From Klebsiella phage VLCpiS11a: DNA of 39,791 nt. Each line of letters begins with the position of its first letter. Position 1 is the first letter of the stretch. The notes under the pieces are model-generated. The model worked only from the letters and a program-made list of their open reading frames with translations. It was not told where the DNA came from and ran no database searches. Positions 5,287 through 30,355 of the stretch are shown here, piece after piece. The stretch is taken from sequence record NC_069154.1; one strand, written 5' to 3'. The position numbers and the translations under genes were made by a program.

Positions 5287-5297
5287 CACGTATTATT

Positions 5298-7638: not shown

Positions 7639-7677
7639 AAAGCCTCTCCGTTTTGGATGAGGCTTATTTTTTATCCG
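7639..7677 (+). terminator. hairpin plus U-tract oriented for rightward transcripts, overlapping the 3' end of the HTH gene
   Basis: AAGCCTC-TCCGTTTTGGA-TGAGGCTT followed by ATTTTTTAT on the + strand. On the minus strand only a weak UUU follows the stem. Confidence 0.4.
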
Positions 7678-7900
7678 GGGTGCCTTCCCCAAGCGCCAGC
7701 CAGCGAGCATCGCACTCCAGCGCATCCGCCAGGCGAAAAATCTGTTCCATACCTAAACTTTTAGTCCGCCCATTCTGCACAAAAGATAAAGCCGACTGCG
7801 AGAGACCACCGCGCATTACGACATCCGTCTGGCGCAGGCCAAGCTGTTTCATCCGCGCGTTAACGCGGAGCTGGAAAGGGTTACGGCGTGCTGTTGCCAT
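7664..7900 (-). CDS. Cro/XRE-family helix-turn-helix regulator (78 aa)
   Basis: LGLRQTDVVMRGGLSQSALSFVQNG is an HTH_XRE pattern. The gene is divergent from the early rightward operon. Confidence 0.7.
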   Translation of the reverse strand: MATARRNPFQLRVNARMKQLGLRQTDVVMRGGLSQSALSFVQNGRTKSLGMEQIFRLADALECDARWLALGEGTPDKK

Positions 7901-7939
7901 TATAGGAATCCTCTTAATAGATATGTTGACGTCTGCAAT

Positions 7940-7967
7940 ACTATAGTATCTAACCGCACATAATCAA
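7940..7967 (-). promoter_or_regulatory. putative leftward early promoter TTGATT-16-TATAGT whose -10 lies within the palindrome ACTATAGT
   Basis: rc of 7962-7967 and 7940-7945. An AAGAGGAT RBS precedes the HTH gene ATG. Confidence 0.4.
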
Positions 7968-8045
7968 GCCGTTTTAATGTGTGCCGCGGCGCAGAAAGGT
8001 AAGTTATTGATTTTAACGGCGCTGCAATTTAATTTGAAAAATCGC

Positions 8046-8075
8046 TTGCAATCCCGATTTATCTGGACATATTAT
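8046..8075 (+). promoter_or_regulatory. putative rightward early promoter TTGCAA-18-TATTAT with an AT-rich UP-like element upstream and a GCAACCAA motif at the predicted +1
   Basis: -35 at 8046-8051, -10 at 8070-8075. AT-rich segment aatttaatttgaaaaat at 8028-8044. Motif at 8080-8087. GTGAGGAT RBS for the 8120 gene. Confidence 0.5.
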
Positions 8076-8119
8076 TACATCGCCGAAACGCAACCAACTT
8101 AACTAAGTGAGGATTTACC

Positions 8120-8611
8120 ATGATCGAGAAATTTTACGCACTGCTGGAGCGCTTTGTTTTAGCCCATGAACTTTTGGCGGATGCCGCGCAAATGCAAGCG
8201 GGTAAAGGCGCACCTGTAGTGCCGTTATTACCCGCCGACGAGCCAGAAGAAAAAGCGCCATCAAAAACCACCCGTGGCCGCAAACCGGCAGCGAAGAAAG
8301 AAGAACCGGAAGACGACGAGCCGGAAGAGAAGACTACCACCAAAAAACGCGGTGGCAAAACCGAAGCGCCAGCAAAACCGGCCCGCAGTAAGAAAGGCGC
8401 CGACAAGCGCGCTGCGATCGGCGAAATGGCAAAAGTGGCTGTAGAAGGCGACGGCCTGGACGATGACGACGCCGACGCGCTGGTGGATAAGTTCGACGAC
8501 CTGCTGGAAGACTTCGAAGTTAAGAACGTCAAAGAGCTGGACGACGACCAGGTGGACGAATTCCACGACGCGCTTAAAGAGCTGATCGAAGAGTTCTACG
8601 ACGCTGAATAA
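8120..8611 (+). CDS. first-early acidic/basic low-complexity protein (163 aa)
   Basis: N-terminal helix, central Lys/Pro/Glu-rich segment (KPAAKKEEPEDDEPEEKTTTKKRGGK...), and a strongly acidic C-terminus (DDDDADALVDKFDDLLEDFE...EEFYDAE). It is the first gene after the early promoter and is followed by its own terminator. Confidence 0.5.
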   Translation: MIEKFYALLERFVLAHELLADAAQMQAGKGAPVVPLLPADEPEEKAPSKTTRGRKPAAKKEEPEDDEPEEKTTTKKRGGKTEAPAKPARSKKGADKRAAIGEMAKVAVEGDGLDDDDADALVDKFDDLLEDFEVKNVKELDDDQVDEFHDALKELIEEFYDAE

Positions 8612-8618
8612 CCGATCT

Positions 8619-8640
8619 GCCCCGGCGTGCCGGGGCTTTT
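8619..8640 (+). terminator. rho-independent terminator after the acidic early gene
   Basis: GCCCCGGC-GTGC-CGGGGC followed by TTTTAA. Confidence 0.55.
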
Positions 8641-8658
8641 AACCAGGAGTAAACCGTT

Positions 8659-9357
8659 ATGCGCCTTACCAAAGATATTAAAAACCAGCTGATCACTAAC
8701 TTGCTGAAACAAGCCCCTCTCGGCCTGCGTGCCATCGCGTGCATGGAAGAACGCCGCGACATCGTGAAGACCGCTCGCCTGCTGTGCCTCGCTGCCGAGA
8801 AGACAACCGACCTCGAGATCCGCGGCCTGCGTGAAATGATTAAGCGCAAGGGTGCGGCGGTCGACAATAATTTTGTAAGTGTCTATGCCGCGGTTTGCGA
8901 AGTGGACAAGGACAATTATCACTCTTACACCATAGACTTTGCCGTCGGTGGCGAGGTCCATTGTCGAATGCTGGACGGGTTCGACCGCCACTATCAGCCA
9001 GGGATCGGGCGTCGTGCGCTTCATGATTGTGAATATTTCGGCTGGTGGCTGTATGAGCTGGCGGAGTTCAAGGACGATGGATACTTCCTGCCGCGTGAGC
9101 GCGTCCTGATTGATGCCGACCCGGCATTGCAGGAGCGTATCGCGAAAGCGGATGCGGAGTATCGGGATCTGTTCTCGGAAGTTGTAGCATGGCGCGCGAC
9201 CATGCGCTCAAATCTGGCGGCGGTGAACACTTCCGAAAAATTGCGCGAAGTATGGCCGGAAGCATTCCCATTCTTACCGGCGCAGGCTAAAACGCAGACG
9301 GCAGCGATCGCGCTGTCACCTGAAACCCTTAACGCTTTATGTGGGCTGCCGAAATGA
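8659..9357 (+). CDS. hypothetical early protein (232 aa)
   Basis: ORF with a CAGGAGT RBS. No recognisable motif. Confidence 0.5.
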   Translation: MRLTKDIKNQLITNLLKQAPLGLRAIACMEERRDIVKTARLLCLAAEKTTDLEIRGLREMIKRKGAAVDNNFVSVYAAVCEVDKDNYHSYTIDFAVGGEVHCRMLDGFDRHYQPGIGRRALHDCEYFGWWLYELAEFKDDGYFLPRERVLIDADPALQERIAKADAEYRDLFSEVVAWRATMRSNLAAVNTSEKLREVWPEAFPFLPAQAKTQTAAIALSPETLNALCGLPK

Positions 9358-9614
9358 AATACACCCTTATGAAAGGCCGCGACTCTCGCGACAACGTGAT
9401 CGCCTTCTGGCTCCTGCGCACCGACGGCGAGACGAAAGAATGCGCATACCTCGGCAAATGCCCGCCGCCGGTTAACCGTGGCGCGCAGGCCGCCCGCATT
9501 AAGCAGGTGACCATGGTTAAGCCTGATTTTTATGTCTTTGAAGACCAGTCAATGTTTGCGCTTCACTGCGACTATGCGTCGGCGTCACTGGTCGCAACCT
9601 GGGAGACTGTGTAA
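9354..9614 (+). CDS. hypothetical protein (about 86 aa)
   Basis: Start taken at the ATG overlapping the upstream TGA in an ATGA arrangement (MKYTLMKGRD...). An alternative start lies at 9339. Confidence 0.4.
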   Translation: MKYTLMKGRDSRDNVIAFWLLRTDGETKECAYLGKCPPPVNRGAQAARIKQVTMVKPDFYVFEDQSMFALHCDYASASLVATWETV

Positions 9615-9784
9615 TGCGTAGGTTTAAGGTTGTGATTGAAACACCTTTTGTTAACGGCGAAATTATCGAATATTTCGAGGTTGAGAACGACGCAACTGAC
9701 GAAGAGATCGCCGCCGAAGCAAAAGATGTTTTCCATAACTCATGTAATTACGTATTTAGCGAGGTTTTTGGCGATGACGAATAG
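9614..9784 (+). CDS. small acidic protein (56 aa, MRRFKVVIETPFVNGEIIEYFEVENDATDEE...)
   Basis: TAATG stop/start overlap with the upstream gene. Below the 60-aa cutoff of the ORF track. Confidence 0.3.
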   Translation: MRRFKVVIETPFVNGEIIEYFEVENDATDEEIAAEAKDVFHNSCNYVFSEVFGDDE

Positions 9785-11138
9785 CAGCGGCAGCAATCAC
9801 GAACACGCCTTGCTGTCTCCGTCCGGGTCTAAAAAATGGCTGGGGTGCTCTGCATCCCTGCTGTGCGAGAAGGACATCCCGAACGAAAGCGGCCAGGCCG
9901 CCATTAACGGGACCGCGATGCACGCGGTATCCGAGGACCTTTTAAACCGGCACATTAAAGGCGAGACCGCTGTAACGGCGGCGCATTACAAGGGCGTCTA
10001 CGTCCTGAATGAAGGCAAAGGCCCGATTAAGGCGGTGGCGGGCAAGCCGCCAGCTGGCTCGGTACTCATCAACGATGAATTCGTGACCATGGTCGGGCGC
10101 TACACCGATTATGCGCTCGGGATCATCTCATCCGCGGAGTACGTGAAGATCGAGATGCGCGCCGAGCTGACTAAGCTACTGCACCCTGGCTATACGGCGG
10201 ATTTTGGTAAAGCGGACTTTATTACCGCGGATGGTAGAAAAGCCAATTTTAAGACGAAAAACGTCGAAATAATTTTTGTTAAAACTTTCGGCACGGCGGA
10301 TCTGGTTGCCGTAATCCCGCGTACAGATGGGACCTTTATGCTGTTTGTCGGTGACCTGAAAACCGGCCGGCACGCGGTCGACGCGAAAGAGAACAAGCAG
10401 CTGATGCTGTACGCGCTGGCTATCCTGGCGAAGCTGCGCAGGCTGTATGACATTACGCTGGTGCGCCTGGCGATATTCCAGCCTTATTGCGGTGGCCCGT
10501 CAGAATGGGACATCACGCCAGAGGGACTGGACATCTTCCGCAAGTTCGCCAGCAAGCGCGCGATCGAGGCGCTTGACGTCTACTACGGCGGTAAGAAAAA
10601 TCTTAAGGCCAGCCATTTCAGGCCGTCGGCGGACGCTTGCCAGTGGTGTCGGTTCAACGAGAAATGCAACGCCAGGACGAAGGCCGCTATCCAAACGGGC
10701 GGCACTACGGCGACGGATGCCGACCTGGGCGACGACAATCACGAAATGACGCCGGAAGAGCTGAAAGCGGCCTATGAAAAGCTGCCGGAGTTGCGCCAGC
10801 ACATTGCCACGATCGAAAAGGCTATGCATGCGGCGCTGCTGTCCGGCGTTGCTGTGCCCGGCTATAAGCTGGTTACCGGTAACGAGGGTAACCGTAAATG
10901 GTCCGACGCTGCGAAGGTTACCGAAATGCTGGAAGGCGCGCGTATCAAGCGCGATATGATGATTAAAGAGTCGCTGATCTCGCCTACCGACGCGGAGAAA
11001 GTCTTTAAGACCGAGAAGCCGCGTATCTGGCGGCGCCTTGAAAAGCTGATCGAGCGCGCCCCCGGCAAACCGACAATTGCGGCAGCGGACGACCCGCGCG
11101 CCGAGTGGAAACAGGCATCCGATGAGGATTTATCATGA
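9774..11138 (+). CDS. DUF2800-type PD-(D/E)XK nuclease (Cas4/RecB-like) with a C-terminal Cys cluster
   Basis: HALLSPSGSKKW N-terminal signature. FVGDLKTGRH is a D-x-K motif. CQWCRFNEKC is a Cas4-like Cys cluster. Start set at MTNSS (9774), which has a GAGG RBS. Confidence 0.7.
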   Translation: MTNSSGSNHEHALLSPSGSKKWLGCSASLLCEKDIPNESGQAAINGTAMHAVSEDLLNRHIKGETAVTAAHYKGVYVLNEGKGPIKAVAGKPPAGSVLINDEFVTMVGRYTDYALGIISSAEYVKIEMRAELTKLLHPGYTADFGKADFITADGRKANFKTKNVEIIFVKTFGTADLVAVIPRTDGTFMLFVGDLKTGRHAVDAKENKQLMLYALAILAKLRRLYDITLVRLAIFQPYCGGPSEWDITPEGLDIFRKFASKRAIEALDVYYGGKKNLKASHFRPSADACQWCRFNEKCNARTKAAIQTGGTTATDADLGDDNHEMTPEELKAAYEKLPELRQHIATIEKAMHAALLSGVAVPGYKLVTGNEGNRKWSDAAKVTEMLEGARIKRDMMIKESLISPTDAEKVFKTEKPRIWRRLEKLIERAPGKPTIAAADDPRAEWKQASDEDLS

Positions 11139-11386
11139 TTTATCGCATGTTGAAAGCTTTGGCCTATGTACTATCTATGGTTATATCTTGGGCTATGATT
11201 GCACCATGTCTGGTGATAGCTATGCCGTTTATCATGCTGGCTTTCACCTATGCCGGGACAATGGATGCCGATGAAATTATGGGCCAGGACACCCGCGCCG
11301 GCCGCCTCATGCGCTGGGTGAATGGCTGGGATTGGCCTAACATCTGGATTTCTTGGGTGGAGCGATTTACCGGGATTTATCATTGA
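11135..11386 (+). CDS. small membrane protein (83 aa, 2 TM)
   Basis: Two hydrophobic segments. ATGA overlap with the nuclease gene. Confidence 0.4.
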   Translation: MIYRMLKALAYVLSMVISWAMIAPCLVIAMPFIMLAFTYAGTMDADEIMGQDTRAGRLMRWVNGWDWPNIWISWVERFTGIYH

Positions 11387-11420
11387 CATCTGCAACCAAC
11401 TAAATTAACGTATTCATACC
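11384..11420 (+). promoter_or_regulatory. putative promoter with consensus -35 TTGACA and a GCAACCAAC motif in the spacer, upstream of the SSB gene
   Basis: TTGACA at 11384-11389; the motif at 11392-11400 overlaps the spacer. The -10 is weak (TAACGT). Confidence 0.35.
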
Positions 11421-11465
11421 GGCCCGGCGGTTTCCGGGAGAAACGCAAAAAGTGAGAAACGAAAA

Positions 11466-12215
11466 ATGGGAATCAAGGTAAATCTGAAAAATGTACGCAT
11501 CTCGTGGTTCTATGGGTTCGAGAAAGCGAAAGCAAAGAATGACGGCGAAAAGGACGCATATCGCGTCGAAATTCTGGTTGACAAGGACGACCACAAAAAT
11601 ATTGCCAAGCTGGACGAAGCGGCTTTAGTGGTAATGACCGAAGCGCTTAAATCGGAAAAGGCTGCCGAGAAATGGCTTAAACGCGAAAGCGGCCTTGATG
11701 GCAATATCTCCAAAGATTGCGCCATCAAAGACGGTGACGAGCGCGACACGGAAGACGAAAATTACGAGCACAAAATCTGGATCCGTGCCAAGTCCTACAA
11801 ACAGCCGCGTATCCTTACCAGCGAAGGTGAAGAGACCCGCGACGGCGAAGAAGACCTCGAAGGAAATGACCTGGAAGGCAAAGTGCCTTACGGCGGCTGC
11901 TTCGCCAACGTGTCGATCGAATTGTGGGGCCAGAATAACGACACAGGCAAAGGGCTGCGCTGTAACTGGCTTGGCGTTAAATTCGTCGAAGATGGTGAAG
12001 CGTTCGGCGGCGGTGGCTCCAGCGAGCGCGCCAATGACGACGATCTGTCCGATGACGAAGACGACGCACCACGCCGCGGCAAGTCCAAGCCGAAACCGTC
12101 CCGCCGCTCACGTGATGAGGATGAAGACGAAGAGGACGAAAAACCCCGCCGTCGCCGTTCTCGCGATGAGGACGAAGACGAGGAGGAAGAGCGACCGCGC
12201 CGCCGTCGCCGCTAA
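11466..12215 (+). CDS. DUF2815-type single-stranded-DNA-binding protein with a repetitive acidic/Arg-rich C-terminus
   Basis: VNLKNVRISWFYGFE N-terminus is typical of DUF2815 (T7 gp2.5-like SSB). It is adjacent to DUF2800 and PolA as in the conserved module. The C-terminus reads PRRRRSRDEDEDEEEERPRRRRR. Confidence 0.6.
   Translation: MGIKVNLKNVRISWFYGFEKAKAKNDGEKDAYRVEILVDKDDHKNIAKLDEAALVVMTEALKSEKAAEKWLKRESGLDGNISKDCAIKDGDERDTEDENYEHKIWIRAKSYKQPRILTSEGEETRDGEEDLEGNDLEGKVPYGGCFANVSIELWGQNNDTGKGLRCNWLGVKFVEDGEAFGGGGSSERANDDDLSDDEDDAPRRGKSKPKPSRRSRDEDEDEEDEKPRRRRSRDEDEDEEEERPRRRRR
12100..12212 (+). repeat. imperfect tandem repeat of about 45 bp (x2) encoding (P)RRRRSRDEDEDEE(D/E)E(K/R)P at the 3' end of the SSB gene
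   Basis: cgccgctcacgtgatgaggatgaagacgaagaggacgaaaaaccc is followed by cgccgtcgccgttctcgcgatgaggacgaagacgaggaggaagagcgaccg. Confidence 0.5.
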
Positions 12216-12262
12216 AACCAAGGCCCGCGAAAGCGGGCTTTTTCATATCCGGAGCGTGAACC

Positions 12263-12454
12263 ATGAAAGAATATTTCACTATCATAAGAACCATTGAAGC
12301 ATTAGGGCCTAATGTATGGTCCGTTGTGGCGCATGTAGAGGGTAAAGAGGCCGCAGACCATGCGCGTGACTTTTTCGAAGCTAACTGGCCTTATGAGAAA
12401 ACAGGTGTAGATGGCGTTGTGAATTACAGGTATGAGGTAATTCGTGATGTATAA
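12263..12454 (+). CDS. hypothetical protein (63 aa)
   Basis: ORF lying between the SSB and polymerase genes. Confidence 0.35.
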   Translation: MKEYFTIIRTIEALGPNVWSVVAHVEGKEAADHARDFFEANWPYEKTGVDGVVNYRYEVIRDV

Positions 12455-12635
12455 ACACAACCGAAACCGCCCCCATGAAACCAGGATCCCCGTCGGACTG
12501 CCGTTGGACGTTGAGGACGCCGGCGAGTATTTAACCCTCCGTCTCGGCCGCAAAATGTACCTGCGAATTGTAGACGTTGACGAACAAGCCCGCCGGCGCA
12601 AAGCAATGACGGCAACCGACGAGGACCTGGAATGA
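12444..12635 (+). CDS. hypothetical protein (63 aa)
   Basis: ORF overlapping its neighbours by a few nt. ATGA overlap with the polymerase start. Confidence 0.35.
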   Translation: MMYKHNRNRPHETRIPVGLPLDVEDAGEYLTLRLGRKMYLRIVDVDEQARRRKAMTATDEDLE

Positions 12636-14818
12636 AGTTCGATAACCTTTTTCTCGACACTGAAACATTCAGCGCCTGCGACCTGAAAAAATGCGGGTCA
12701 TATGCCTATGCTGAACACCCGTCCACCGAAATTATGATAACCACCTTCGCTATTGACGACGGCCCGGTTATGGAATGGGACGCAACGGCAGATCCCCGGA
12801 TGCCGCGGGTATTGCGCCGGGCGCTGCGAGAGGTATGCAAGCAGAACACGAAGAGCCGGATTGTTATGCAAAACGGCCTTTTGTTCGATCGCCTGCTCAT
12901 GCGTCACTGCTGGGGCATCGAGATCCCGGTAAAAAACATCATCGATACGATGATCTGCGCCTACCGGCTATCACTTCCTGGCTCCCTGGACGCGCTGTGC
13001 CGCGTTCTGGAGATATCCGAGGACTTAGCCAAGGATAAAGCCGGTAAAGCGCTGATACAGCGATTCTGTAAGCCTACGCCGAAAAATTACAAGATCCGCC
13101 GCTACACCCGCGAAACGCATCCGGAAGAGTGGCGCCGTTTTCTTAAATACGCCCGCAGCGATATATCGTCAATGCGTGAAGTGTTTTACACGCTGCCGAC
13201 CTGGGGTGACACCGAGAAAGAAAACGAGATACTCGCCATTGACCAGGCGATCAATGACCGCGGATTCTACGTCGACACGGTACTGGCTGAATCTGCGATC
13301 GCCGCGGTGAAACAGCATAAGCTGGACCTGCAGCGCGAGGCGATGGCGAAATACGGCGGCAGCCTGACCGGTAAGGACTTCCTCCCGATCCTGCGAGACC
13401 TGGCGCCGGCGTTTGAGATACCCAACGCGCAGAAGGCGACCCTGGGCGATTTACTCGACGATGAAGACCTGCCGGACGCCGCCCGCGCGCTCATCGAAAT
13501 GCGTCTCGGCGCCGCGTCCACCGCCTCCACCAAGTACGACCCACTGCTGCGCGGCTTATCAAGCGACGGCCGGCGCCGCGGCTGTTTGCAGTATGGCGGC
13601 GCGAAAAGGACGCTGCGCTGGGCGGGTAAAGGCTTCCAGCCGCAGAACCTGGCGCGCGGCCATTATGAAGGCGAAGACCTTGATTACGGGATCCGCTGTC
13701 TTAAGCGCAACCGCATCATGAAGGCTTTCGACATCGCCAAGCTAACGGCGACCACGGTTCGCGGGTGCATTATCGCCGCGCCCGGATGCAAGCTGGTTGT
13801 TGCCGACTACTCAAACGTCGAAGGCCGTGGCCTGGCGTGGATATCCGGCGAAGAGGCAACGCTTAATGTTTTCCGCGCCGGCACTGACCTGTATAAAACG
13901 CTCGCGTCTACCGTCTTCTGCGTGTCGTATGACGATGTGTCGAAGGACCAGCGCCAGATCGCCAAGGCGATGATCCTCGGGCTTGGCTACGGCGGCGGTG
14001 TGGCGGCATTCCTGACATTTGCCAAAAACCTCGGCCTTGACCTTGACCGGCTGGCGCACGACCTGGCGGGCACATTCCCGGACCATATCTGGAAGGCTGC
14101 GCGCCGGGGCTGGGAGTTTGCCCGCATCCAGGAGAAGAACAAGCGAGCACCGAAGGGCAAGAAGGCCGAGCGGCCGTCGTATGACCTGCCGAAAAAAGTA
14201 TGGCTGACCTGTGACGCATTGAAACGCATGTACCGCGAGGCTAACCCGAATATCGTTAATTTCTGGTCCGAGCTGGAAGCGGCAGCATTGAGCGCGATCC
14301 GCAATCCTGGCCGGTCATTTTGGGCGGGCGCCCGGGTACGCGAGAACGGCGACAAGGCTGTTAAGTTCACCCGCACCGTGAAGAACGGAAACCCGGGCTG
14401 GTGGCTTAAGGTTGAGCTGCCGTCTGGTCGCATCCTGTCATATCCAGGGATCGGCTTGTCGGTCGAAAAAGAGGAAGACGAGGACACCGGCGAGATCCGC
14501 ACGCGTACCCGCATCAAATACCAGGGAGAGAACCCGACGACGCGCCAGTGGGGATGGCAGTACACCTATGGCGGCAAGTTGGCGGAAAACATCGTACAGG
14601 CCCTTTGTCGTGACCTGCTGGCCTGGTCAATGCCTGGCGTCGAGGCCGCCGGGTATAAGATTATTCTGTCCGTGCATGACGAACTTTTAACCGAAGTTCC
14701 CGACACGCCGGAGTACACCGTTGCGGAGCTGGAGCGCCTTATGTGCGTGCTGCCGGCGTGGGCCAAAGACTTCCCATTGAGCGCCGAGGGCTGGGAAGGA
14801 AAAAGGTATAAAAAATAA
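12632..14818 (+). CDS. family-A DNA polymerase with 3'-5' exonuclease domain
   Basis: Exo I motif FLDTETFS. Motif A VVADYSNVEGR. Motif B RQIAKAMILGLGYGGG. Motif C SVHDEL. 728 aa. Confidence 0.9.
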   Translation: MKFDNLFLDTETFSACDLKKCGSYAYAEHPSTEIMITTFAIDDGPVMEWDATADPRMPRVLRRALREVCKQNTKSRIVMQNGLLFDRLLMRHCWGIEIPVKNIIDTMICAYRLSLPGSLDALCRVLEISEDLAKDKAGKALIQRFCKPTPKNYKIRRYTRETHPEEWRRFLKYARSDISSMREVFYTLPTWGDTEKENEILAIDQAINDRGFYVDTVLAESAIAAVKQHKLDLQREAMAKYGGSLTGKDFLPILRDLAPAFEIPNAQKATLGDLLDDEDLPDAARALIEMRLGAASTASTKYDPLLRGLSSDGRRRGCLQYGGAKRTLRWAGKGFQPQNLARGHYEGEDLDYGIRCLKRNRIMKAFDIAKLTATTVRGCIIAAPGCKLVVADYSNVEGRGLAWISGEEATLNVFRAGTDLYKTLASTVFCVSYDDVSKDQRQIAKAMILGLGYGGGVAAFLTFAKNLGLDLDRLAHDLAGTFPDHIWKAARRGWEFARIQEKNKRAPKGKKAERPSYDLPKKVWLTCDALKRMYREANPNIVNFWSELEAAALSAIRNPGRSFWAGARVRENGDKAVKFTRTVKNGNPGWWLKVELPSGRILSYPGIGLSVEKEEDEDTGEIRTRTRIKYQGENPTTRQWGWQYTYGGKLAENIVQALCRDLLAWSMPGVEAAGYKIILSVHDELLTEVPDTPEYTVAELERLMCVLPAWAKDFPLSAEGWEGKRYKK

Positions 14819-15162
14819 TGACTTACACAAAAATTAAAGTTGATGTATACGCCCGGGAAGTATGGGTGACCCGTGATATTGAAACCGCGAAACGACTCGC
14901 CTGGCGCTACTGCAAAATCAAGATCACAGACGAGGATTTCAAATGCAAAGGATTTACAGCTAACGGCCTCGGTAACAATGTTGTGTGGCTACACGAATCA
15001 TCTTGGGTGCAAACCCTGGCCCATGAGATGACGCATGTGGCCCTTAACATTTTCCATCACGCTGGCGCGAGCGTGGACACCAATAACCAGGAGCCCACCG
15101 CATATCTGGTGGGGTATCTAACCGGTGCCGCTTTTTACTGGCTGGAGGGTCAAAAGCCATGA
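14818..15162 (+). CDS. small HExxH-motif protein (putative zinc metallopeptidase-like, 114 aa)
   Basis: LAHEMTHVALNIFHHAG. ATGA overlaps with both neighbouring genes. Confidence 0.45.
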   Translation: MTYTKIKVDVYAREVWVTRDIETAKRLAWRYCKIKITDEDFKCKGFTANGLGNNVVWLHESSWVQTLAHEMTHVALNIFHHAGASVDTNNQEPTAYLVGYLTGAAFYWLEGQKP

Positions 15163-15449
15163 CGCCGGAGGGAAGAGTACAGGCTTACGCAATGGCTGAG
15201 TTTAAAAAACTCGGCGGCCTGGTAAGAAAAATAAAGTACGAGGGGCGCAACGGATGCCCCGATCTGCTGGTCATTCTGCCCGGCGGTCTGGTGGTGTTCA
15301 TCGAAATGAAAAAGGCCGCCAATCTCGGGCCTGATCCGCACCAGGCGCGCGAGCATAAGCGGATGCGCCGTCGAGGTGCCATAGTTCGCACAATCGGCAG
15401 CAAAGAGCAGGTGGACAAATTGGTTGCAGAATTAGGCTATAGTGTTTAG
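15159..15449 (+). CDS. VRR-NUC domain nuclease
   Basis: GCPDLLVILPGGLVVFIEMKK matches the VRR-NUC PD-(D/E)XK core. Position between PolA and the SNF2 helicase is the typical one. Confidence 0.75.
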   Translation: MTPEGRVQAYAMAEFKKLGGLVRKIKYEGRNGCPDLLVILPGGLVVFIEMKKAANLGPDPHQAREHKRMRRRGAIVRTIGSKEQVDKLVAELGYSV

Positions 15450-15476
15450 TATGTTGGTTGCTAAGGAGGATATACC

Positions 15477-15740
15477 ATGCCTAAACCTAAATTGAGAAAG
15501 GCCGGCCGGGAGCTGGTTGAAAAATATGGGTCGCTCTCTGCGGCCCCGGATGAGGCGCTTGCTGCCGTTACCAAGCGTTGCAACGGCCCGTGCCGTAAGC
15601 GCAAGCCCTTAAGCGAGTTCCACCGTTACAGCGGGCGCAGCGTGGACGGTTTCCGCGCAGTCTGCAAACAATGCCGCCGGGAAGCCGAACGCGAGCGCCA
15701 GCGGGTTAAGAGAAAACCAGCACAGGAAGAAACCGAATGA
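15477..15740 (+). CDS. Cys-rich (CxxxC...CxxC) zinc-finger-like basic protein (87 aa)
   Basis: CNGPCRKRKP...CKQCRRE. Strong AAGGAGGA RBS. Two TTGGTTGC motifs and a TATAGT lie upstream. Confidence 0.45.
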   Translation: MPKPKLRKAGRELVEKYGSLSAAPDEALAAVTKRCNGPCRKRKPLSEFHRYSGRSVDGFRAVCKQCRREAERERQRVKRKPAQEETE

Positions 15741-15916
15741 GAGTTTTAGCGGGAGCAATCAAACGTGGCGACGTGCTGCAGGTTGGTGATGTTCTGGAAA
15801 CTGTTTTCGATGCCTTCCGATCGCTTGATGCACAGAAACAGGAGATCCGCGTTATCCAGTTCGAAAGCGGGACAGTTATGATCCTGGAATATTCCGATAT
15901 CGTGGAGCGCGTATGA
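15737..15916 (+). CDS. small hypothetical protein (59 aa)
   Basis: ATGA overlaps at both ends. Below the ORF-track cutoff. Confidence 0.3.
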   Translation: MRVLAGAIKRGDVLQVGDVLETVFDAFRSLDAQKQEIRVIQFESGTVMILEYSDIVERV

Positions 15917-16410
15917 AAAAACCGATAAATCTGGACCGCATAAAGAGACTGCTTACGTACGACCCGGAAACAGGTGTTTTTACCCGGCTGGTCTCTGTCA
16001 AAGGCAGAAATGCGGGCGACATTGCCGGGTGTCTGTCAGACCGCGGATACGTAAATATCGTTGTTGATGGCGTGCGATTGAAAGGCCATCGTCTCGCGTG
16101 GGCTTTTGTCCACGGGGTCTATCCAGAATTCGAGATCGACCACAAAGACCGCAATCGGTCTAATAACGCCATTGACAATTTAAGACCTGCGACGCGAAGT
16201 CAGCAGATAGTAAATCGCGATACATCTGCCAGAAATACCAGTGGGGCAAAAGGTGTGTATATGCTGCCGTCTGGACGCTGGCGAGCTCGCATTTGTAAGG
16301 GCCGGAAATATATCCATCTCGGCTATTTCGATTCTATGGCAGAGGCTGAATCAGTTTACAAAAAAGCCGCTTCTGAATTGTTTGGGGAGTTCGCCGATGT
16401 CACGCTTTAA
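15913..16410 (+). CDS. HNH homing endonuclease with C-terminal AP2 domain
   Basis: HNH_3 motif EIDHKDRNRSNNAIDNLRPATRSQQ. AP2 motif GVYMLPSGRWRARI...HLGYFDSMAEAESVY. Confidence 0.8.
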   Translation: MKKPINLDRIKRLLTYDPETGVFTRLVSVKGRNAGDIAGCLSDRGYVNIVVDGVRLKGHRLAWAFVHGVYPEFEIDHKDRNRSNNAIDNLRPATRSQQIVNRDTSARNTSGAKGVYMLPSGRWRARICKGRKYIHLGYFDSMAEAESVYKKAASELFGEFADVTL

Positions 16411-17818
16411 GCGACGCCCTTACCAGCGGCAGATTACGCAATTCATGCTGCGCCATCCGCGTTGCAATATCTACGCGACTATGGGATCAGGGAAGACGGG
16501 CTCTGTAATGTGGACCCTGGACCGCCTGTTTCAGACTGGTGATCTCGTCGACGGCGAAGACCGCGTGCTTATTCTGGCGCCGCTGCGCGTCGCGTCCGGC
16601 ACATGGCCGGCGGAACAGGAGAAATGGCAATTCCCTAACCTACGTGTCGGTGACGCCACTGGCCCGGCGGCGCACCGCGTCGCCACGCTGGAAGAAGATT
16701 TCAACGTCATATGCCTGAATTACGAGTGCATAGAGTGGTTGACCGGGCTTTATGGCCCGGACTACTGGCCGTTTACCGTTATCGTCGCCGATGAGTCAAC
16801 CAAACTAAAATCGTACCGGTCAAAGAGTGGCGGCAGCAAACGCGCGAAGGCTCTAAGTCGTGTCGCCTGGGGCCGCGTTAAGCGCTTCATCAATCTGACC
16901 GGTACGCCGTCGCCTAACGGGTTAAAGGACCTGTGGGGGCAAAACTGGTTTATCGACGCCGGCGAGCGCCTCGGGACGTCTTACGCGGCATTTACCGATC
17001 GCTGGTTCATCACCGAGTCAAAAGGCGACCACCACGCCGCTAAAGGCTACCGGCCGCGCCGGGGTGCCGACGATGAGATCCACCGGGCGATGAAAGATAT
17101 TTCGTTGACGGTTGACGCTGCCGAGTTCTTCGGCTGTGAAGAGCCAGTGCTGGTCCCGGTGCTGGTAGACCTGCCGAAGAAAGCCCGCAAGATTTATGAC
17201 CAGATGGAAAAGGAGCTTTTCGCGGAGCTGGAAAACGGCGAGGTAGAAGCGGCCAATGCGGCAGCACGCACGTCTAAATGCCTGCAGATCGCCAGCGGCG
17301 CGGTATACGTCACCAACGAAGACGGCGAGCGCTCCACCGAGTGGGAGAAAATCCACGACGCGAAACTGGACGCGCTGGACTCCATCATAGACGAGCTGGC
17401 GGGCGCGCCGCTCCTGGTGGCCTACCAGTACAGGCACGACCTGGCGCGCATCAAAAAGCGGTTCCCGTTTGCCGAGGACCTGAAAAAGGGAGCTGCCGGT
17501 AATAAGCAGATCGACCGCTGGAACCGTGGCGAGATTGAAGTGCTGCTGGTGCACCCGGCATCCGCTGGTCATGGCCTTAACCTGCAGGACGGCGGTTGCC
17601 ATCTCGCCTTCTTTAGCGACACCTGGAACTACGAACATTATGCGCAGGTGGTAGAGCGTATCGGGCCGGTGCGCCAGCACCAGGCAGGCCACCCGCGGCC
17701 AGTGTTTATCTACCTGATTCAGGCCAAGGGTACGCTTGACGAAGTTATGGTGGCGCGGCGCGGTGATAAGGCGTCGGTTCAATCGGTGCTTATGGATTAC
17801 ATGAAGAGGAAGAAATGA
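16395..17818 (+). CDS. SNF2/DEAD-like superfamily-2 helicase
   Basis: Walker A MGSGKTG. Motif II VIVADESTKLK. Helicase C-terminal domain. The internal ATG at 16395 avoids running through the HNH gene. Confidence 0.8.
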
Positions 17819-18516
17819 TGGTTGTCTGGAGCCTGTTCTACGGGTCTGGGTTAATGGTTAACCCTTGGGCGGAAGCCGGCCATACTTGCTATTGCTTCAA
17901 CTTCGAAGACGAGGACCACGGCAGCTATAAAGACGTTGCTGTGCGCCATGAAAACATTCATTACGTGAACGCGTGGATCAACTCCTCTTTTGCGCGTCGA
18001 GCCATCCGGGGTAAATGGCCTAAGCCAGATATTATTTTCGCGTTTCCGCCATGCACGGATATGGCGTCGAGCGGTGCCCGATGGTTCGCTTCAAAACTCG
18101 CTGCAGATCCAGAATGCCAAAATAAAGCCGTCGCCACCGCGCGTATTGCGGAATACCTGGCTAACTATTTCGGGGCCCCGTACATGGTGGAGAATCCGCG
18201 CAGTGTGCTGTCGAGCCTTTGGCGTAAGCCTAACAAGATATTCCATCCGTGGCATTACGGCGGCTACCTGCCCGAAGACGACGTGCATCCTAACTTCCCG
18301 CAGTACATCAAAGCGCGGGACGCCTACCCGAAGGAGACGTGGTTATGGACCGGGAACGGGTTCAAGATGCCCGAGGCCAAGGCGGTGCCGCTCGATGACG
18401 GGTATAGTGAACAATATTCACGGCTGGGCGGGAAGACCGCGCGCACGAAGCTGATCCGGTCGCTCACCCCACGCGGTTTCGCTATCGCGGTATGTGAGGC
18501 CAACTATGGCGGATAA
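17815..18516 (+). CDS. short DNA C5-cytosine methyltransferase-like protein (233 aa)
   Basis: Motif I LFYGSGL (FxGxG). Motif IV AFPPCTDMASSG (PC). Motif VI MVENPRSV (ENV-like). Too short for a canonical target-recognition domain. Confidence 0.5.
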   Translation: MMVVWSLFYGSGLMVNPWAEAGHTCYCFNFEDEDHGSYKDVAVRHENIHYVNAWINSSFARRAIRGKWPKPDIIFAFPPCTDMASSGARWFASKLAADPECQNKAVATARIAEYLANYFGAPYMVENPRSVLSSLWRKPNKIFHPWHYGGYLPEDDVHPNFPQYIKARDAYPKETWLWTGNGFKMPEAKAVPLDDGYSEQYSRLGGKTARTKLIRSLTPRGFAIAVCEANYGG

Positions 18517-18997
18517 ATCCAACACCGCACCAGAGGATAAGGACTGCTGGCGAACGCCGCCGGAGATATTCGAACCGCTTAACGAGAGGTTTAATTTCCG
18601 CTATGACATGGCGGCAGCAGACCATAACGCCCTTTGCGCACGGTACTACACCGAACAGGATAGCGCCCTGGGTATCGAGTGGCCTGCGGCGTGGAAGTGG
18701 TGCAATCCGCCGTATTCTAAGCCGCTGCCGTGGTTCCAGCACGCCGCGCAGTACCGTAGAACGGTGTTACTCCTGCACCTGGCCGTTGCTACGCAGTGGA
18801 TGGATATAGCGCGCCGGGAGGCGAATACCATTATTCAGCTGACCGAGCGCATCCAGTTTATCCACGCCAGGACCGGCGAGCGCGCGGCGACGAAGAACAA
18901 CCGCGACTCGCAGATCATTATCTTCGGCCGGCGACCTAATCCCGACGGCGCGCGCATCGTCCAGTGCTCGATCGCGGATATCGCAAAATATCTGTAA
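18506..18997 (+). CDS. phage-type DNA N6-adenine methyltransferase (Dam-like, pfam05869 type)
   Basis: WRTPPEIFEPLNERFNFRYDMAA and the catalytic CNPPYS motif. Start at MADKSNT, which has a GTGAGG RBS. Confidence 0.8.
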   Translation: MADKSNTAPEDKDCWRTPPEIFEPLNERFNFRYDMAAADHNALCARYYTEQDSALGIEWPAAWKWCNPPYSKPLPWFQHAAQYRRTVLLLHLAVATQWMDIARREANTIIQLTERIQFIHARTGERAATKNNRDSQIIIFGRRPNPDGARIVQCSIADIAKYL

Positions 18998-19004
18998 ATG
19001 TTGG

Positions 19005-19033
19005 TTGCAATCTTAGTGGAGTCATATTATAGT
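19005..19033 (+). promoter_or_regulatory. strong sigma70-type promoter TTGCAA-17-TATAGT (copy A of the 42-bp twin promoter)
   Basis: AATGTTGGTTGCAATcttagTGGAGTCATATTATAGTTA. Copy B at 34809-34848 is near-identical. Confidence 0.6.
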
Positions 19034-19077
19034 TAATTCATAGGGCGGCGCGGTGCGGCCTTAAATAGGAGATTAAA

Positions 19078-19326
19078 ATGTTTGGATTCGGAGAGGCAGT
19101 AGCTCAATTAAATGCCGGGGTTAAAGTCGCCCGTAGCGGTTGGAACGGAAAAGGCATGTTTCTTTTCTTGGTCAGTGGTAATTCCTGGGACTTTACTACT
19201 GACGTTGAGGGTGTGGACGGCCTCGACACGCTGCCTTTTGTGTGTATGAAAACAGCGGACGGGAAATTGGTCCCCTGGCTGGCTAGCCAAACGGACATAA
19301 TCGCCACCGATTGGGTGGTTGTCTAA
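19078..19326 (+). CDS. DUF2829-like small protein (82 aa; family that includes Thoeris anti-defence Tad2)
   Basis: The N-terminus FGFGEAVAQLNAGVKVARSGWNGKGMF matches the F-x-E-A-x-x-x-L-K-x-G-x-K-V-A-R-x-G-W pattern I recall for DUF2829. TAGGAGAT RBS. Driven by the twin promoter. Confidence 0.4.
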   Translation: MFGFGEAVAQLNAGVKVARSGWNGKGMFLFLVSGNSWDFTTDVEGVDGLDTLPFVCMKTADGKLVPWLASQTDIIATDWVVV

Positions 19327-19368
19327 TATCACAGGCCCCTCGCGGGGCCACTTTCAGGAGCAAACACA

Positions 19369-19608
19369 ATGAAACGTATTACCGCAATCGCAATCACTCT
19401 GGCCGCCGTTCTGGGCTGCTCGTATGCTGGATCCGCCGCTGCCGCCACTCCGGTCGAAATGTGCCAGGAGCTGGCCGAAATGGGCGGGGTTATCGTCGAC
19501 GCCAGGAACCGTGGCGACTCGCTGGAAAACGTAACCAGCATTATCAACGGCAGCGATATGATCCCGAGCCTTAAAGCCGGTATGACGCGCATCGCTGAAA
19601 CGCGCTGA
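19369..19608 (+). CDS. exported protein (signal peptide; possible lipoprotein), candidate Cor-like superinfection-exclusion factor
   Basis: MKRITAIAITLAAVLGCSYAGSAAAA signal sequence. 79 aa. Lies next to the tail-fibre genes, as cor does in T1/phi80-type phages. The lipobox is non-canonical (VLGC). Confidence 0.45.
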   Translation: MKRITAIAITLAAVLGCSYAGSAAAATPVEMCQELAEMGGVIVDARNRGDSLENVTSIINGSDMIPSLKAGMTRIAETR

Positions 19609-19664
19609 CGTCGTGGCGTATGGGTTTAAAGGTTGTATTGACGGAATGTCGGAGGATATGTGAG

Positions 19665-19690
19665 AAAAGGGCCTTGCGGCCCTTTTAATT
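19665..19690. terminator. bidirectional rho-independent terminator between the moron cassette and the tail-gene operon end
   Basis: AAAAGGGCC-TTGC-GGCCCTTTT perfect hairpin with A/T runs on both sides. Confidence 0.6.
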
Positions 19691-19877
19691 ATGACGATAA
19701 CAGCTCTATAGCTTTTTTAACCGATTCTTTCGCTGTAAGTCCCTCAGAAAAATAATCGACCCATTTCCCCTTATAGGCAACAATATCCATTGAATGTCCG
19801 TCATTTTTAACCAGTTCTACCACTTCCCTGAACCAGGTTTCAAAGGGCGGCTCAGTAAGTTCTGTTTCTTTTTCCAT
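19689..19877 (-). CDS. small protein (62 aa) at the 3' end of the late operon
   Basis: ATG (MEKETELTEPPFETW...) with a GTAGGAG RBS. The ORF-track start is a GTG two codons upstream. Confidence 0.4.
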   Translation of the reverse strand: MEKETELTEPPFETWFREVVELVKNDGHSMDIVAYKGKWVDYFSEGLTAKESVKKAIELLSS

Positions 19878-19885
19878 TTTCACTC

Positions 19886-21787
19886 CTACATTGAGGGCAA
19901 CATAGAAACGTTAACAGTTCTTGCCTGGCCGTCAACGTTAGTTAAAAGCACCGTTATCAATCCCGTAGCGCTATCAATTGATAGCGCCACTGTAACACCT
20001 GTGCCAGAAATACCAATTCTTCCGGAACTAGCCACAATGCCAGCTGTTATAACATCAATATAGTAACTTCCTTCACGTCTAATACGCACTGGTATTTTAA
20101 TGTCATCACCAAGGGCAGAAGAACCAATTCTACACTCTATAAGAACAGTTCTTGTGACATATGTATCATAAGCATTTTGTGATATGTTGGTCTTGGTCAG
20201 CGATAACGTTGCGCCCGCAGAACCTGCCAACGTACCTGATGACTGTGAACCAATAATTCGCCTGCCTTTAACAACCTGGGTCATACCAATATTTACATCG
20301 TCGTCCATACCAAGGTTGCCGGTTATAGACTTATTTAACGTGGTCGCCTTCTGGTTAATTGCCGAAGTAACAAAACCTGTCATATCACTTCCGGAAACCA
20401 GAAGCGAACCGCCACCAGAGCCAAGAACCGAAATGTTAAACGATGGTGAAGTTGTGCCCCCATCGCCGCTGTCATTCGCACCGACACCAGTTCTTACCCC
20501 TGAGAGTTCAATTTTACCGTCATCAATAATAATAAAGTTTGCGGAATAGTCATTTCCCACGGGCTGATTAGCCCCACTGCGCCGGACGTTAACGCCGTTT
20601 AGAATCCATGACGACTGACCCGCGGCAACTACACCACCTCTTCCGGCCCTGTCGCAAAGTTCACCGGAAATTTGGTTCTCCACCGACTGGAACGCATACC
20701 AGTTATCGCCGGAGTTCCATTCGTTGCGACATCCGCCGAAAAAGTTATTGTTTGCTCCACCGGTAAGGGCCACTCCTCTGTCATTAGCATTGATTGTGCA
20801 AGCAATCATCATGGAGTCTATAAGATTCCGGACCCCATCTACGTTTCCAGATATTGAACAAAAGAAAGCCTTTACCGTACCCATATATCGAGACCAACCA
20901 ACACCGACAGCAAAGCGGTAAATTCCGCATCCCTCAAGTCGGGTGCCGTTGAATTGGGCTGATGTATCTGCGGAATAAAAAAGGTACGTTGTTTTATCTC
21001 GGCCATCAAAAACAATATCCCGGAATACATGACGACCAGTTGAATAAAATGGGAAACTTGCACCAGCTGCTACGCGGATGACGACACCACAATTAATAAA
21101 GCTACTATCACCTGCTATTGTGTAAGGCCGGCGACAGCCCCACCCTATAAGTGAGAATCCCAATGGAAGGGTCGCGGGATCGCTGCCAAGTTCAATAATT
21201 CCCAGATTCCATGGTATATCAAGGATCATAACTCCCGCAGCTATAGCGGCTTTTAACGCATAGTCCGCTGCGACTACTGCTCCAGCAGTCGTAAGTAATG
21301 CTTGTTGATCTGATTCGGTAAGGTATTCGAAAAGTGACGCACGAATTATTCTGTCCAGAGGCGAGTTGTTCCGGTGCACCATTAACGCCCCCGTCTCCGA
21401 CGATAATTCCTGCCGCAATAGCTGGTCGGTGCGAGGTTTCCAGTTGGCATCTAATAGCGGGTTTGCACCTGGCGTCACAACATGCGGCAGCGCACCGGCC
21501 CATGAATACCAGTTATTATCGGCCGGGTTATAAACCACGGTGTCACGCGCGGTAATGGTGCCGCCGGTGGTGAAATCGAACGCGGCCGGGTTAAAACCCA
21601 TGTCGCGCAGGATCGCCGGGAGAGTTTTTTGGACTTGCCCGGTAACCTGGTTAGTTGCAAAGTCAATCTCCGCACCGGAAGATACACCGCCCGCACGCCC
21701 AGTGATAACTTCGGCCTCGAAGGTCTGGTGCTTCTTGGCTGTTTTCAGATCTTCCAGCGATAAGACGTCGCCGCATCCGCTTGACAT
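19886..21787 (-). CDS. tailspike/tail fibre protein, probably with a beta-helix glycanase (depolymerase) domain
   Basis: 633 aa and the last structural gene. Gly/Asn/Ser-rich repetitive beta-helix-like composition. Strong AAGAGGA RBS. Confidence 0.6.
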   Translation of the reverse strand: MSSGCGDVLSLEDLKTAKKHQTFEAEVITGRAGGVSSGAEIDFATNQVTGQVQKTLPAILRDMGFNPAAFDFTTGGTITARDTVVYNPADNNWYSWAGALPHVVTPGANPLLDANWKPRTDQLLRQELSSETGALMVHRNNSPLDRIIRASLFEYLTESDQQALLTTAGAVVAADYALKAAIAAGVMILDIPWNLGIIELGSDPATLPLGFSLIGWGCRRPYTIAGDSSFINCGVVIRVAAGASFPFYSTGRHVFRDIVFDGRDKTTYLFYSADTSAQFNGTRLEGCGIYRFAVGVGWSRYMGTVKAFFCSISGNVDGVRNLIDSMMIACTINANDRGVALTGGANNNFFGGCRNEWNSGDNWYAFQSVENQISGELCDRAGRGGVVAAGQSSWILNGVNVRRSGANQPVGNDYSANFIIIDDGKIELSGVRTGVGANDSGDGGTTSPSFNISVLGSGGGSLLVSGSDMTGFVTSAINQKATTLNKSITGNLGMDDDVNIGMTQVVKGRRIIGSQSSGTLAGSAGATLSLTKTNISQNAYDTYVTRTVLIECRIGSSALGDDIKIPVRIRREGSYYIDVITAGIVASSGRIGISGTGVTVALSIDSATGLITVLLTNVDGQARTVNVSMLPSM

Positions 21788-29190: not shown

Positions 29191-30355
29191 ACGCGTACAC
29201 AAGGCGCTGAATGACGATAGACGACTGCTGGCTGTTTCCGGTCGCCTGGCCCTCAATGCTCTGCGTCACGGACTCTGCACCGCCAATTTCCGGGGTTACC
29301 GCTGTCAGTTCGGCGCGCTTCATCGAGATAGACATTGCGCCCTTCACACCGGACAGAATCGAGTTAATTTCGACCTGCGTCTCGTTAATGAATTTCTGGA
29401 TCATCGCCATGTCGTAAAGTTTACCGGCGATGGAGAAGGTGTTGACCGCACGACCGCGCTCAACGAACGCCACGCTATTATTACCCAGCTCGAATTGCGC
29501 CGATGCACCATTATCGTTGGTAAAGGTCAGCGTATCGCACTTAAGCGGCTGAATACCATCGAACACGGATACATCAACCGACGAGAACGGCTCCGCGTCA
29601 AAGGTGATCTGTGAGAAGTCCGAACCGGCCGGCGGCGCAGTGAGGATCTCCTGATTCATGCCGATAAAGGGGAAAGAGCCGGTAACCATGGCATTTACTG
29701 CCTGCTCAATGGTAAAGCCGGAGATCTCAACACCGCGGGTGATAACGAAGCTGTCCGGGTTACCGCACTGGCCTTTGAACCAGGTAAGGATCGAGAAGGT
29801 CTTACACAGGTTACCAGTTTCCAGCTTGTCGCCGGTGGCGTAATCGGTCTCCGCGGCGGCTGCAGTGGTCAGCGGGTACTGGATAGCCGCGCCGGTTACT
29901 ACGGTAGACGTTACCGCAGTGACAATGAACGGCAGCCCATTATTACCCGGCAGGTCCGCGAAGCGAATGAGATCGCCGACTTCTACGCCGTCGGTGAGAA
30001 AGTCTCCCGCCGAACGAGTAAAAGTCTTAGCCCCAGCGTCTACAGCGACGTCTACGGCGGTGCCGGTTACTCCGGCCACCCAGGAAGACGTCATCGCACC
30101 CGCGAGAAAATCATCCTGGCTGCGGGAACTAAGCTCGATCGCGTATTCGCCGGAGACCTGTTTATTCCCGGTGCGGATGAAAGATGTTTCCCGGCTGCCG
30201 TCGAGCTCGTTGGATGTCAGCGCGTCGCGGGTTACCGCAGGCACACCGCCGGTGTTGCGCAGCGGTGACCATACCGGGCTGGTCGGTGTAGTTCCTGGCG
30301 TTGTCTCCGCAACGTAAAATTGTGCGGTAAGCGCGCCCTTATATGGCTGTACCAT
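29189..30355 (-). CDS. major tail (tube) protein
   Basis: 388 aa. Lies immediately upstream of the chaperone pair. GAGG RBS. Confidence 0.6.
   Translation of the reverse strand: MVQPYKGALTAQFYVAETTPGTTPTSPVWSPLRNTGGVPAVTRDALTSNELDGSRETSFIRTGNKQVSGEYAIELSSRSQDDFLAGAMTSSWVAGVTGTAVDVAVDAGAKTFTRSAGDFLTDGVEVGDLIRFADLPGNNGLPFIVTAVTSTVVTGAAIQYPLTTAAAAETDYATGDKLETGNLCKTFSILTWFKGQCGNPDSFVITRGVEISGFTIEQAVNAMVTGSFPFIGMNQEILTAPPAGSDFSQITFDAEPFSSVDVSVFDGIQPLKCDTLTFTNDNGASAQFELGNNSVAFVERGRAVNTFSIAGKLYDMAMIQKFINETQVEINSILSGVKGAMSISMKRAELTAVTPEIGGAESVTQSIEGQATGNSQQSSIVIQRLVYA

Follow-up and report, generated by a model that had tools for sequence, protein, structure and literature searches.

A Tad2-family gene in a variable slot behind a conserved promoter, followed by a truncated lipoprotein gene, in Klebsiella phage VLCpiS11a

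Klebsiella phage VLCpiS11a (NC_069154.1; the window is the whole stretch of 39,791 nucleotides analysed here) carries two small genes between its DNA adenine methyltransferase gene, dam, and the converging tailspike operon. What are these genes, and do they form one unit of imported cargo? A preliminary description, made from the letters of the DNA, had read them as a moron cassette in which a Tad2-like gene behind twin promoters is paired with an exported Cor-like protein. The first gene is a member of the Tad2/DUF2829 family, and its product is most likely a sponge for the Thoeris signal 1''-3' glycocyclic ADP-ribose (gcADPR). It is genuine cargo and occupies a hypervariable slot where the rightward cluster of replication and methylase genes has its 3' end, in a Klebsiella siphophage related to phage 37P2. 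The second gene is a different matter. It is a conserved gene of the lineage, not cargo, and the copy in the window is truncated.

The locus consists of the following elements, given with their strands.

19005-19033, + strand: sigma-70-type promoter-like element TTGCAA-17-TATAGT, 9 of 12 consensus positions, directly 3' of the dam stop codon
19067-19071, + strand: Shine-Dalgarno sequence AGGAG of the Tad2-like gene, 6 nucleotides (nt) ahead of its ATG
19078-19326, + strand: Tad2-like (DUF2829) gene of 82 amino acids (aa), N-terminus MFGFGEAVAQLNAGVKVARSGWNGKGMF, identified by PF11195, PDB matches and AlphaFold2 (AF2)/Foldseek
19334-19349, + strand: GC hairpin GGCCCC-TCGC-GGGGCC, -13.9 kcal/mol, z=-2.7, without a U-tract
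19356-19360, + strand: ribosome-binding site (RBS) AGGAG of the lipoprotein gene, 8 nt upstream of its start
19369-19608, + strand: truncated lipoprotein gene (gene 2), 79 aa against a normal 106, lipobox VLGC17, phrog_2315
19594-19596, + strand: junction of a 26-nt deletion relative to genomes L010 and 37P2, with the imperfect repeats CATCGC and CATCAC on either side, from the DNA alignment
19610-19663, + strand: out-of-frame remnant of gene 2 encoding the normal C-terminus VVAYGFKGCIDGMSEDM and stop, including the invariant C98, from the alignment
19665-19686, both strands: bidirectional intrinsic terminator AAAAGGGCC-TTGC-GGCCCTTTT with a 9-bp stem

The product of the first gene is entered in the record as 'hypothetical protein' PF628_gp33. 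It matches Pfam PF11195 at E=1.1e-24 over positions 3-73 of the 73 in the profile, scoring 87.2 bits where the gathering cut-off is 25. A phmmer search of the PDB found HgmTad2/AcrIIA7, ModTad2, SptTad2 and SPO1 Gp34.65, all at E=1e-16 to 1e-14, and the six solved Tad2 sequences match the protein at E of about 1e-15. The NCBIfam and PADLOC searches returned no match. The AF2 monomer model, with a predicted local distance difference test (pLDDT) score of 83, has a helix at residues 4-12, four strands, a second helix at residues 71-75 and a final strand. When this model was compared with the PDB by Foldseek the top 24 matches were all Tad2 structures (template-modelling (TM) score 0.69-0.76, probability 1.00) and the next match had E=0.55. 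Sequence, fold and pocket residues all bear out the DUF2829/Tad2 call of the preliminary description, and two of the checks that it had proposed for this protein, a search against PF11195 and Tad2 structures and a structure prediction, lead to Tad2.

Ten residues of SPO1 Tad2 contact gcADPR: W25, N26, I63, T65, D67, H71, W73, S76, T78 and D79 (10.1101/2023.05.01.538930). Their counterparts in the HMMER alignment are W22, N23, M57, T59, D61, V65, W67, S70, T72 and D73. Eight of the ten are identical; the Ile to Met exchange is conservative and is also seen in HgmTad2, and the His to Val exchange differs. In HgmTad2, mutation of W21/N22 and of S90/T92/D93 abolishes gcADPR binding (10.1101/2023.11.15.567273). 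The window protein retains the W-N-G and W-L-x-S-x-T-D motifs, that is, all of these loss-of-binding positions. The pocket positions are mostly invariant among 32 close homologues.

A second feature of the structure bears on the ligand. From strand 2 to the strand that follows it the window protein has a segment of about 21 residues. The same segment has 24 residues in SPO1 Tad2 and 41 in HgmTad2, where it forms a pocket for cyclic dinucleotides (10.1101/2023.11.15.567273). In SPO1 Tad2 the second pocket is occluded by F44, and F39 of the window protein aligns with this residue. Because of the short segment and the aligned Phe, a second pocket of the HgmTad2 kind is not expected, and the protein is predicted to be an SPO1-type sponge for gcADPR only.

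Comparison with the solved members of the family places the protein more closely. Its architecture is closest to the short SPO1 type (Gp34.65; PDB 8SME, 8SMF, 8SMG). Both are single DUF2829 domains, 82 aa against 89 aa, the predicted fold superimposes with a TM score of about 0.7, and identity in structural alignments is 36-44%; each has a short insert with the Phe described above. The window protein differs from SPO1 Tad2 in having Val for H71 and Met for I63, in an insert that is a few residues shorter and carries its own conserved motif (W37, F39, D42, G45, D47), and in coming from a phage with a Gram-negative host. The best sequence matches are HgmTad2/AcrIIA7 (PDB 8KBI to 8KBM) and SptTad2 (8WJD). 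The N-terminal GWNGKGMF is identical in both, and the C-terminal motif WLASQTDiiAtDW corresponds to WLASQTDMLANDW in HgmTad2 and WLASQTDMQAEDW in SptTad2. As in these two proteins, the residue at the adenine contact is a hydrophobic Met. Unlike the window protein, HgmTad2 and SptTad2 have an insert of about 41 residues that forms the second pocket, for cGG and cGAMP. ModTad2, from a Myroides odoratus prophage (PDB 8V3E, 9EIB), belongs to the same family and fold (E=1.2e-15) and differs in ligand; its ligands are histidine-ADP-ribose (His-ADPR) and cUMP (PMC12393519), it fails to inhibit type I Thoeris, and its motif is WTPSVSD where the window protein has WLASQTD.

By tblastn, Tad2 homologues are present in at least 204 isolated phage genomes, of which 24 are Klebsiella phages, and nearly all are annotated 'hypothetical protein'. 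The nearest one, 94% identical, lies in the same slot of the related genome L010. A 75%-identical Tad2 is found in a T7-like podophage, where it lies between the capsid and tail-tube genes. The GC content of the Tad2 gene is 51%, against 55.5% for the genome.

The locus was compared with that of 37P2 and about 16 metagenomic relatives (labels L001-L008, L010, L023-L032); pattern scans of viral and metagenome collections enlarged this set by only a few genomes. The dam stop codon, the promoter and the start of the leader are conserved in 13 relatives, and the hairpin with the gene 2 RBS (GGCCCC-N4-GGGGCC-ACTTTCAGGAGCAAACACAATG) in most. The DNA between promoter and hairpin differs across L001-L008, L010 and L023-L030. 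Among the roughly 17 sister genomes at least eight unrelated small genes, or an insert without an open reading frame (ORF), stand behind the promoter. The occupants are as follows.

VLCpiS11a window and L010: Tad2 (94% identical proteins)
37P2: a 58-aa ORF
L003: a 73-aa and a 61-aa ORF
L004, L007 and L025: a 69-74-aa ORF
L005: a 53-aa ORF with weak UBA-like matches
L008 and L027: a 63-aa DUF7438 protein
L026: a 72-aa ORF
L028-L030: a second, different 58-aa ORF
L002, L006 (2812-2990) and L024: an ORF-less insert of about 170 nt

The genomes L031 and L032 are without dam and the promoter, and a 45-aa coiled-coil ORF stands there. Most of the alternative occupants use the common leader and RBS of the backbone. 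Two types bring a leader of their own, the 58-aa type of L028-L030 and the Tad2 cassette, which also brings its own RBS.

Since the same promoter precedes other genes in the sister genomes, the Tad2 gene is cargo. The cargo island of the preliminary description therefore stands for this gene, other genes being found at exactly its position in the sisters, and falls for gene 2, which is conserved in the lineage. Of the features of a moron, presence/absence polymorphism among close relatives is seen for the Tad2 gene only, and it takes the form of replacement rather than simple insertion. The promoter-like site belongs to the backbone, the hairpin after the Tad2 gene has no U-tract, and the true terminator comes only after gene 2.

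The left edge of the slot is the promoter. The element TTGCAA-17-TATAGT is present where it had been described, and it is kept after dam in 13 related genomes (L001-L008, L010, L026, L028-L030) whatever gene comes next; it is a property of the backbone and not a part of the Tad2 cassette. A twin of this promoter was not confirmed. The sole candidate that overlaps it, TTGGTT-18-TATTAT (19001-19030), agrees with the consensus at 8 of 12 positions and falls below the threshold of the scan. The strong RBS ascribed to the 82-aa ORF is the AGGAG listed above.

The right edge is the GC hairpin, which is real and lies just 5' of the RBS of the lipoprotein gene. Its stem GGCCCC/GGGGCC is kept in most relatives (sites in L001, L004, L005, L007, L008, L010, L026 and L028-L032), with one change in the 3' arm in each of L004 and L010. 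The 4-nt loop varies among TCGC, GCTA, GCGA, TTGC, GCAA, GTGA, GCCA and GTTT. A fixed stem with a variable loop suggests selection on the hairpin structure.

The slot invites comparison with known phage anti-defence loci such as the SPbeta-like anti-Gabija locus, in which a fixed position holds different small genes, one of them a known anti-defence gene (10.1101/2023.05.01.538930). It differs from known hot spots in that only Tad2 among its occupants has a known function and in that it holds just one or two genes between promoter and hairpin. The alternative occupants gave no match to known anti-defence families; Pfam gave only DUF7438 and the weak UBA-like matches. The insert of L002, L006 and L024, which has no ORF of 35 codons or more, was considered as a structured RNA and rejected: it has no Rfam match, and its fold is no more stable than expected (z=+0.37). 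The idea that the position from promoter to hairpin is a dedicated counter-defence slot, in which the occupants that alternate with Tad2 are uncharacterised anti-defence proteins, is offered tentatively and is somewhat more doubtful than probable.

A further Tad2-like gene was seen in L007 (3348-3617, - strand). It encodes a divergent protein of 89 aa (PF11195 E=9.6e-10) with DDWKNG in place of GWNGKG and WVPSQSE in place of WLASQTD. The gene follows directly on the tailspike gene, on the other strand and across the terminator, where the window has a 64-aa ORF. This suggests that the whole convergent junction collects such genes.

That the Tad2 sponges are already well characterised means that the present member adds annotation rather than mechanism. 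The variable slot with its conserved promoter is a modest new observation and the most useful lead. It shows that Klebsiella phages considered as therapy candidates differ in counter-defence cargo at one easily found position, which could affect their host range on strains that carry Thoeris, and it supplies a short list of small proteins as candidates for new anti-defence activities.

What, then, is the second gene? Its product begins with MKR and a hydrophobic core, followed by V-L-G-C17, and meets the PROSITE lipobox rule. The signal peptide noted earlier is thus present, and the protein is a predicted lipoprotein. Gene 2 is present in nearly every genome of the lineage examined. The close family has 48 members, many of them from phage contigs some 40 kb long. 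A length of exactly 106 aa is found in 32 of the 48, and a few are shorter or truncated. They share one layout: the lipobox (LGC17), a short Ala/Ser linker, and a domain predicted to be a helical bundle (AF2 pLDDT 80-95, residues 31-90). The one family match is to phrog_2315, of unknown function, to which the window copy aligns at E=9e-6 over profile positions 1-61 of 109 and the full-length relative P0001 at E=3.7e-9; Pfam, NCBIfam, PADLOC and the PDB gave no match.

When 1.8 billion representatives were searched with a profile, exported homologues of about 100 aa came up (E=1e-4 to 1e-6); they have the motif C...ARD(R/K)G...(I/V)Y..P...C, and some occur as tandem duplications. Both C32 and C98 are kept without exception in the joint alignment, at identities as low as 24%, which would fit a periplasmic disulfide. 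The distant homologues mostly carry ordinary signal peptides, not lipoboxes. In the two neighbourhoods of distant homologues that were read, the contigs are phage-like and the gene is surrounded by small early genes rather than by tail or receptor-binding genes.

The copy in the window is broken. The 26-nt deletion shifts the reading frame to a stop codon at 19606-19608, and the product is without the last two helices and C98; the full two-cysteine domain of about 80 residues is not there. The lipoprotein encoded in the window is probably inactive. In L008 (3001-3320) an independent frameshift has split the gene into pieces of 71 and 43 aa, and because of this frameshift and the other truncated forms the gene seems dispensable.

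The unit ends at the terminator, which it has in common with the tailspike operon that converges on it. Fold energies of the terminator are -15.3 kcal/mol (+ strand) and -14.8 kcal/mol (- strand), values that none of 200 shuffles reached. The near-equal folding on both strands bears out the bidirectional terminator described after the 79-aa ORF, and the opposed orientation of the unit is likewise as stated, since it converges on the tailspike gene at 19886-21787 (- strand).

Taken as a whole, the locus is best explained as a conserved promoter, a Tad2 sponge for gcADPR in a cargo slot, and a broken lipoprotein gene of the lineage, and this explanation is considered probable. Homology and gene anatomy suggest how it would work. 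Host RNA polymerase would initiate at the promoter after dam early in infection, or transcription from upstream would read through; no terminator was found between dam and the unit. The promoter would drive a two-gene unit that ends at the terminator in common with the tail operon. A stoichiometric sponge has to be made early and in quantity, which fits the host-type promoter, the strong RBS and the 3' hairpin, and the hairpin may stabilise the upstream message or lower read-through into gene 2. By homology, the abundant Tad2 protein would form a homotetramer with two pockets for 1''-3' gcADPR between protomers. The tetramer would sequester the gcADPR made by the TIR protein ThsB, the effector ThsA of type I Thoeris would stay inactive, and the infected cell would not be killed before the phage cycle ends. 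The full-length product of gene 2 would be exported, lipidated and, because of the Ser at +2, probably sorted to the outer membrane, to act at the envelope; superinfection exclusion is one role that it might have.

Several observations count against this explanation. The promoter matches only 9 of 12 positions, and sites of this class occur at chance frequency in the region (five in the 6 kb scanned against 5.1 expected from shuffled sequence); the promoter is credible because of its position and conservation, not because of match frequency. Truncated copies of the lipoprotein gene are also found elsewhere (P0044, P0045, P0047 and L008), and the truncated protein could retain some activity. 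The remaining points concern the ligand. First, H71 of SPO1 Tad2, which coordinates water, is replaced by V65. Second, the insert at residues 33-53 is strongly conserved in the subfamily, with W37, F39, D42, G45 and D47, which could mean a further function. Third, the ligands of Tad2 proteins vary and include 3'cADPR, His-ADPR, N7-cADPR, cyclic dinucleotides and cUMP/cCMP (PMC12393519). Fourth, ModTad2 keeps much of the same motif yet does not inhibit type I Thoeris.

These points lead to the strongest alternative, that the Tad2-like protein sponges another signal instead of gcADPR or in addition to it: His-ADPR of type II Thoeris, N7-cADPR of type IV Thoeris, or a nucleotide of CBASS or Pycsar. 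Tested Tad2 homologues jointly inhibit CBASS, Pycsar and three types of Thoeris, many of them more than one (PMC12393519), and for this reason the ligand is given here as a prediction. ModTad2 scores much like SPO1 Tad2 against the window protein (E=1.2e-15 and 4.6e-15), and the conserved insert would suit a further ligand. The motif argues the other way, however. WLASQTD is identical in the gcADPR binders HgmTad2 and SptTad2 and is WVPSQTD in SPO1 Tad2, whereas ModTad2 has WTPSVSD. The insert is shorter than that of SPO1 Tad2 and about half the length of the HgmTad2 insert that binds cyclic dinucleotides, and its F39 aligns with the occluding F44. Another signal is an unlikely ligand, though one to be kept in mind, and gcADPR is preferred.

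The second alternative concerns gene 2. It holds that the product is a Cor-like outer-membrane lipoprotein that blocks a receptor or DNA entry, excludes superinfecting phages, and travels with Tad2 as exclusion cargo. The resemblance to Cor of T1, phi80 and N15 is one of anatomy: a small lipoprotein whose gene converges on the end of the tail cluster, T1 cor (29623-29850, - strand) following directly on the tail genes. An exclusion role would also agree with the lipobox signal peptide and its Ser at +2, with probable early expression, and with the two invariant cysteines, which suit a periplasmic protein. Homology to Cor was looked for and rejected. T1 Cor falls in phrog_1119 (E=3e-30), gene 2 in both its 79-aa and 106-aa forms matches only phrog_2315, and BLASTP aligns nothing but the signal peptide (E=0.17). 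Unlike Cor, the protein is predicted to be all-helical and has two conserved cysteines. The argument from the neighbouring tailspike gene is weakened by the distant homologues, which have mostly ordinary signal peptides and in the two neighbourhoods read lie among early genes. The searches of Pfam, NCBIfam, PADLOC and the PDB lend the idea nothing, gene 2 is a lineage gene rather than cargo, and the copy in the window, being frameshifted, has neither C98 nor the last two helices. 'Cor-like' is valid only as an analogy of position and lipoprotein type, and Cor-type exclusion as part of a joint cargo is improbable.

The last alternative, an anti-CRISPR of the AcrIIA7 type in place of a signal sponge, can be set aside as very improbable: in the PDB, the top sequence match carries the name 'Inhibitor of Type II CRISPR-Cas system' / AcrIIA7, and one phage homologue is annotated 'anti-CRISPR protein', but type II-A CRISPR systems are not known from Klebsiella. 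HgmTad2, the deposited protein, binds gcADPR and cGG, and its reported anti-Cas9 activity was irreproducible in vitro and in vivo (10.1101/2023.11.15.567273).

The preferred explanation, a gcADPR sponge in a variable slot ahead of a broken lipoprotein gene, can now be set in its neighbourhood. Among the isolated phages of the collection, 37P2 (a Klebsiella phage of the Guernseyvirinae) is nearest, with 93% identity over 72% of window positions 1-20000. The genes on the + strand up to 19608 have replication and modification functions, and from 19689 on the - strand encodes the tailspike, a tail fibre and further structural proteins. The flanking genes are as follows.

16241-17818, + strand: SNF2 helicase, in the upstream gene cluster
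17815-18516, + strand: DNA methyltransferase, phrog_757, E=1e-84
18494-18997, + strand: Dam-type N6-adenine DNA methyltransferase (dam), Pfam PF05869 E=2e-34, phrog_111
19689-19883, - strand: small ORF of 62-64 aa downstream of the tailspike gene, phrog_519 (function unknown), in the imported module described below
19886-21787, - strand: tailspike, in the converging operon

The Tad2/lipoprotein unit converges on the tailspike operon and is co-directional with the replication and methylase genes upstream, dam being the final conserved gene ahead of the slot. At the position of the phrog_757-type methyltransferase, 37P2 has an HNH endonuclease gene and L010 an 88-aa ORF. Because this methyltransferase is swapped in the two relatives, the end of the rightward operon is a mosaic enriched in probable counter-restriction functions.

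On the other side of the locus the genome changes origin. Over window positions 19661-21414 (tailspike gene, 64-aa ORF and terminator) the sequence shares 87% identity with Klebsiella phage VLCpiS10a, and the remaining genome is like 37P2. As the similarity to VLCpiS10a begins at 19661, the terminator is where a tailspike module that derives from another phage lineage joins. The loop of the terminator is inverted relative to 37P2 and L010 (TTGC against GCAA). The imported module is also lower in GC content, at 49% for the tailspike gene and 39.5% for the small ORF, against the genome average given above. Homologues of the small ORF occur in Klebsiella phages and K. pneumoniae genomes, one of them labelled DUF5419; neither the phrog_519 match nor the homologue search gave a function.

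The last 85 nt or so of the lipoprotein gene (aa 79-106; window 19610-19690) recur at 83-90% aa identity in unrelated Klebsiella phages, namely Geezett (Jedunavirus), vB_Kpn_HF1013, PCCM_KpPS2, VLCpiM12a and P12620-1. Two of these fragments were located as follows.

L014, 3501-3584: lipoprotein 3' fragment in Geezett
L015, 3501-3563: lipoprotein 3' fragment in P12620-1

In six of eight records the fragment lies under no annotated gene, and in Geezett its neighbours are a terminator, a small ORF and a tail-fibre gene. The fragment looks like the scar of an exchange of tail-fibre or tailspike cassettes with breakpoints inside the gene, and the truncated lipoprotein gene and the scattered 3' fragments together mark sites at which tailspike modules are exchanged between Klebsiella phages.

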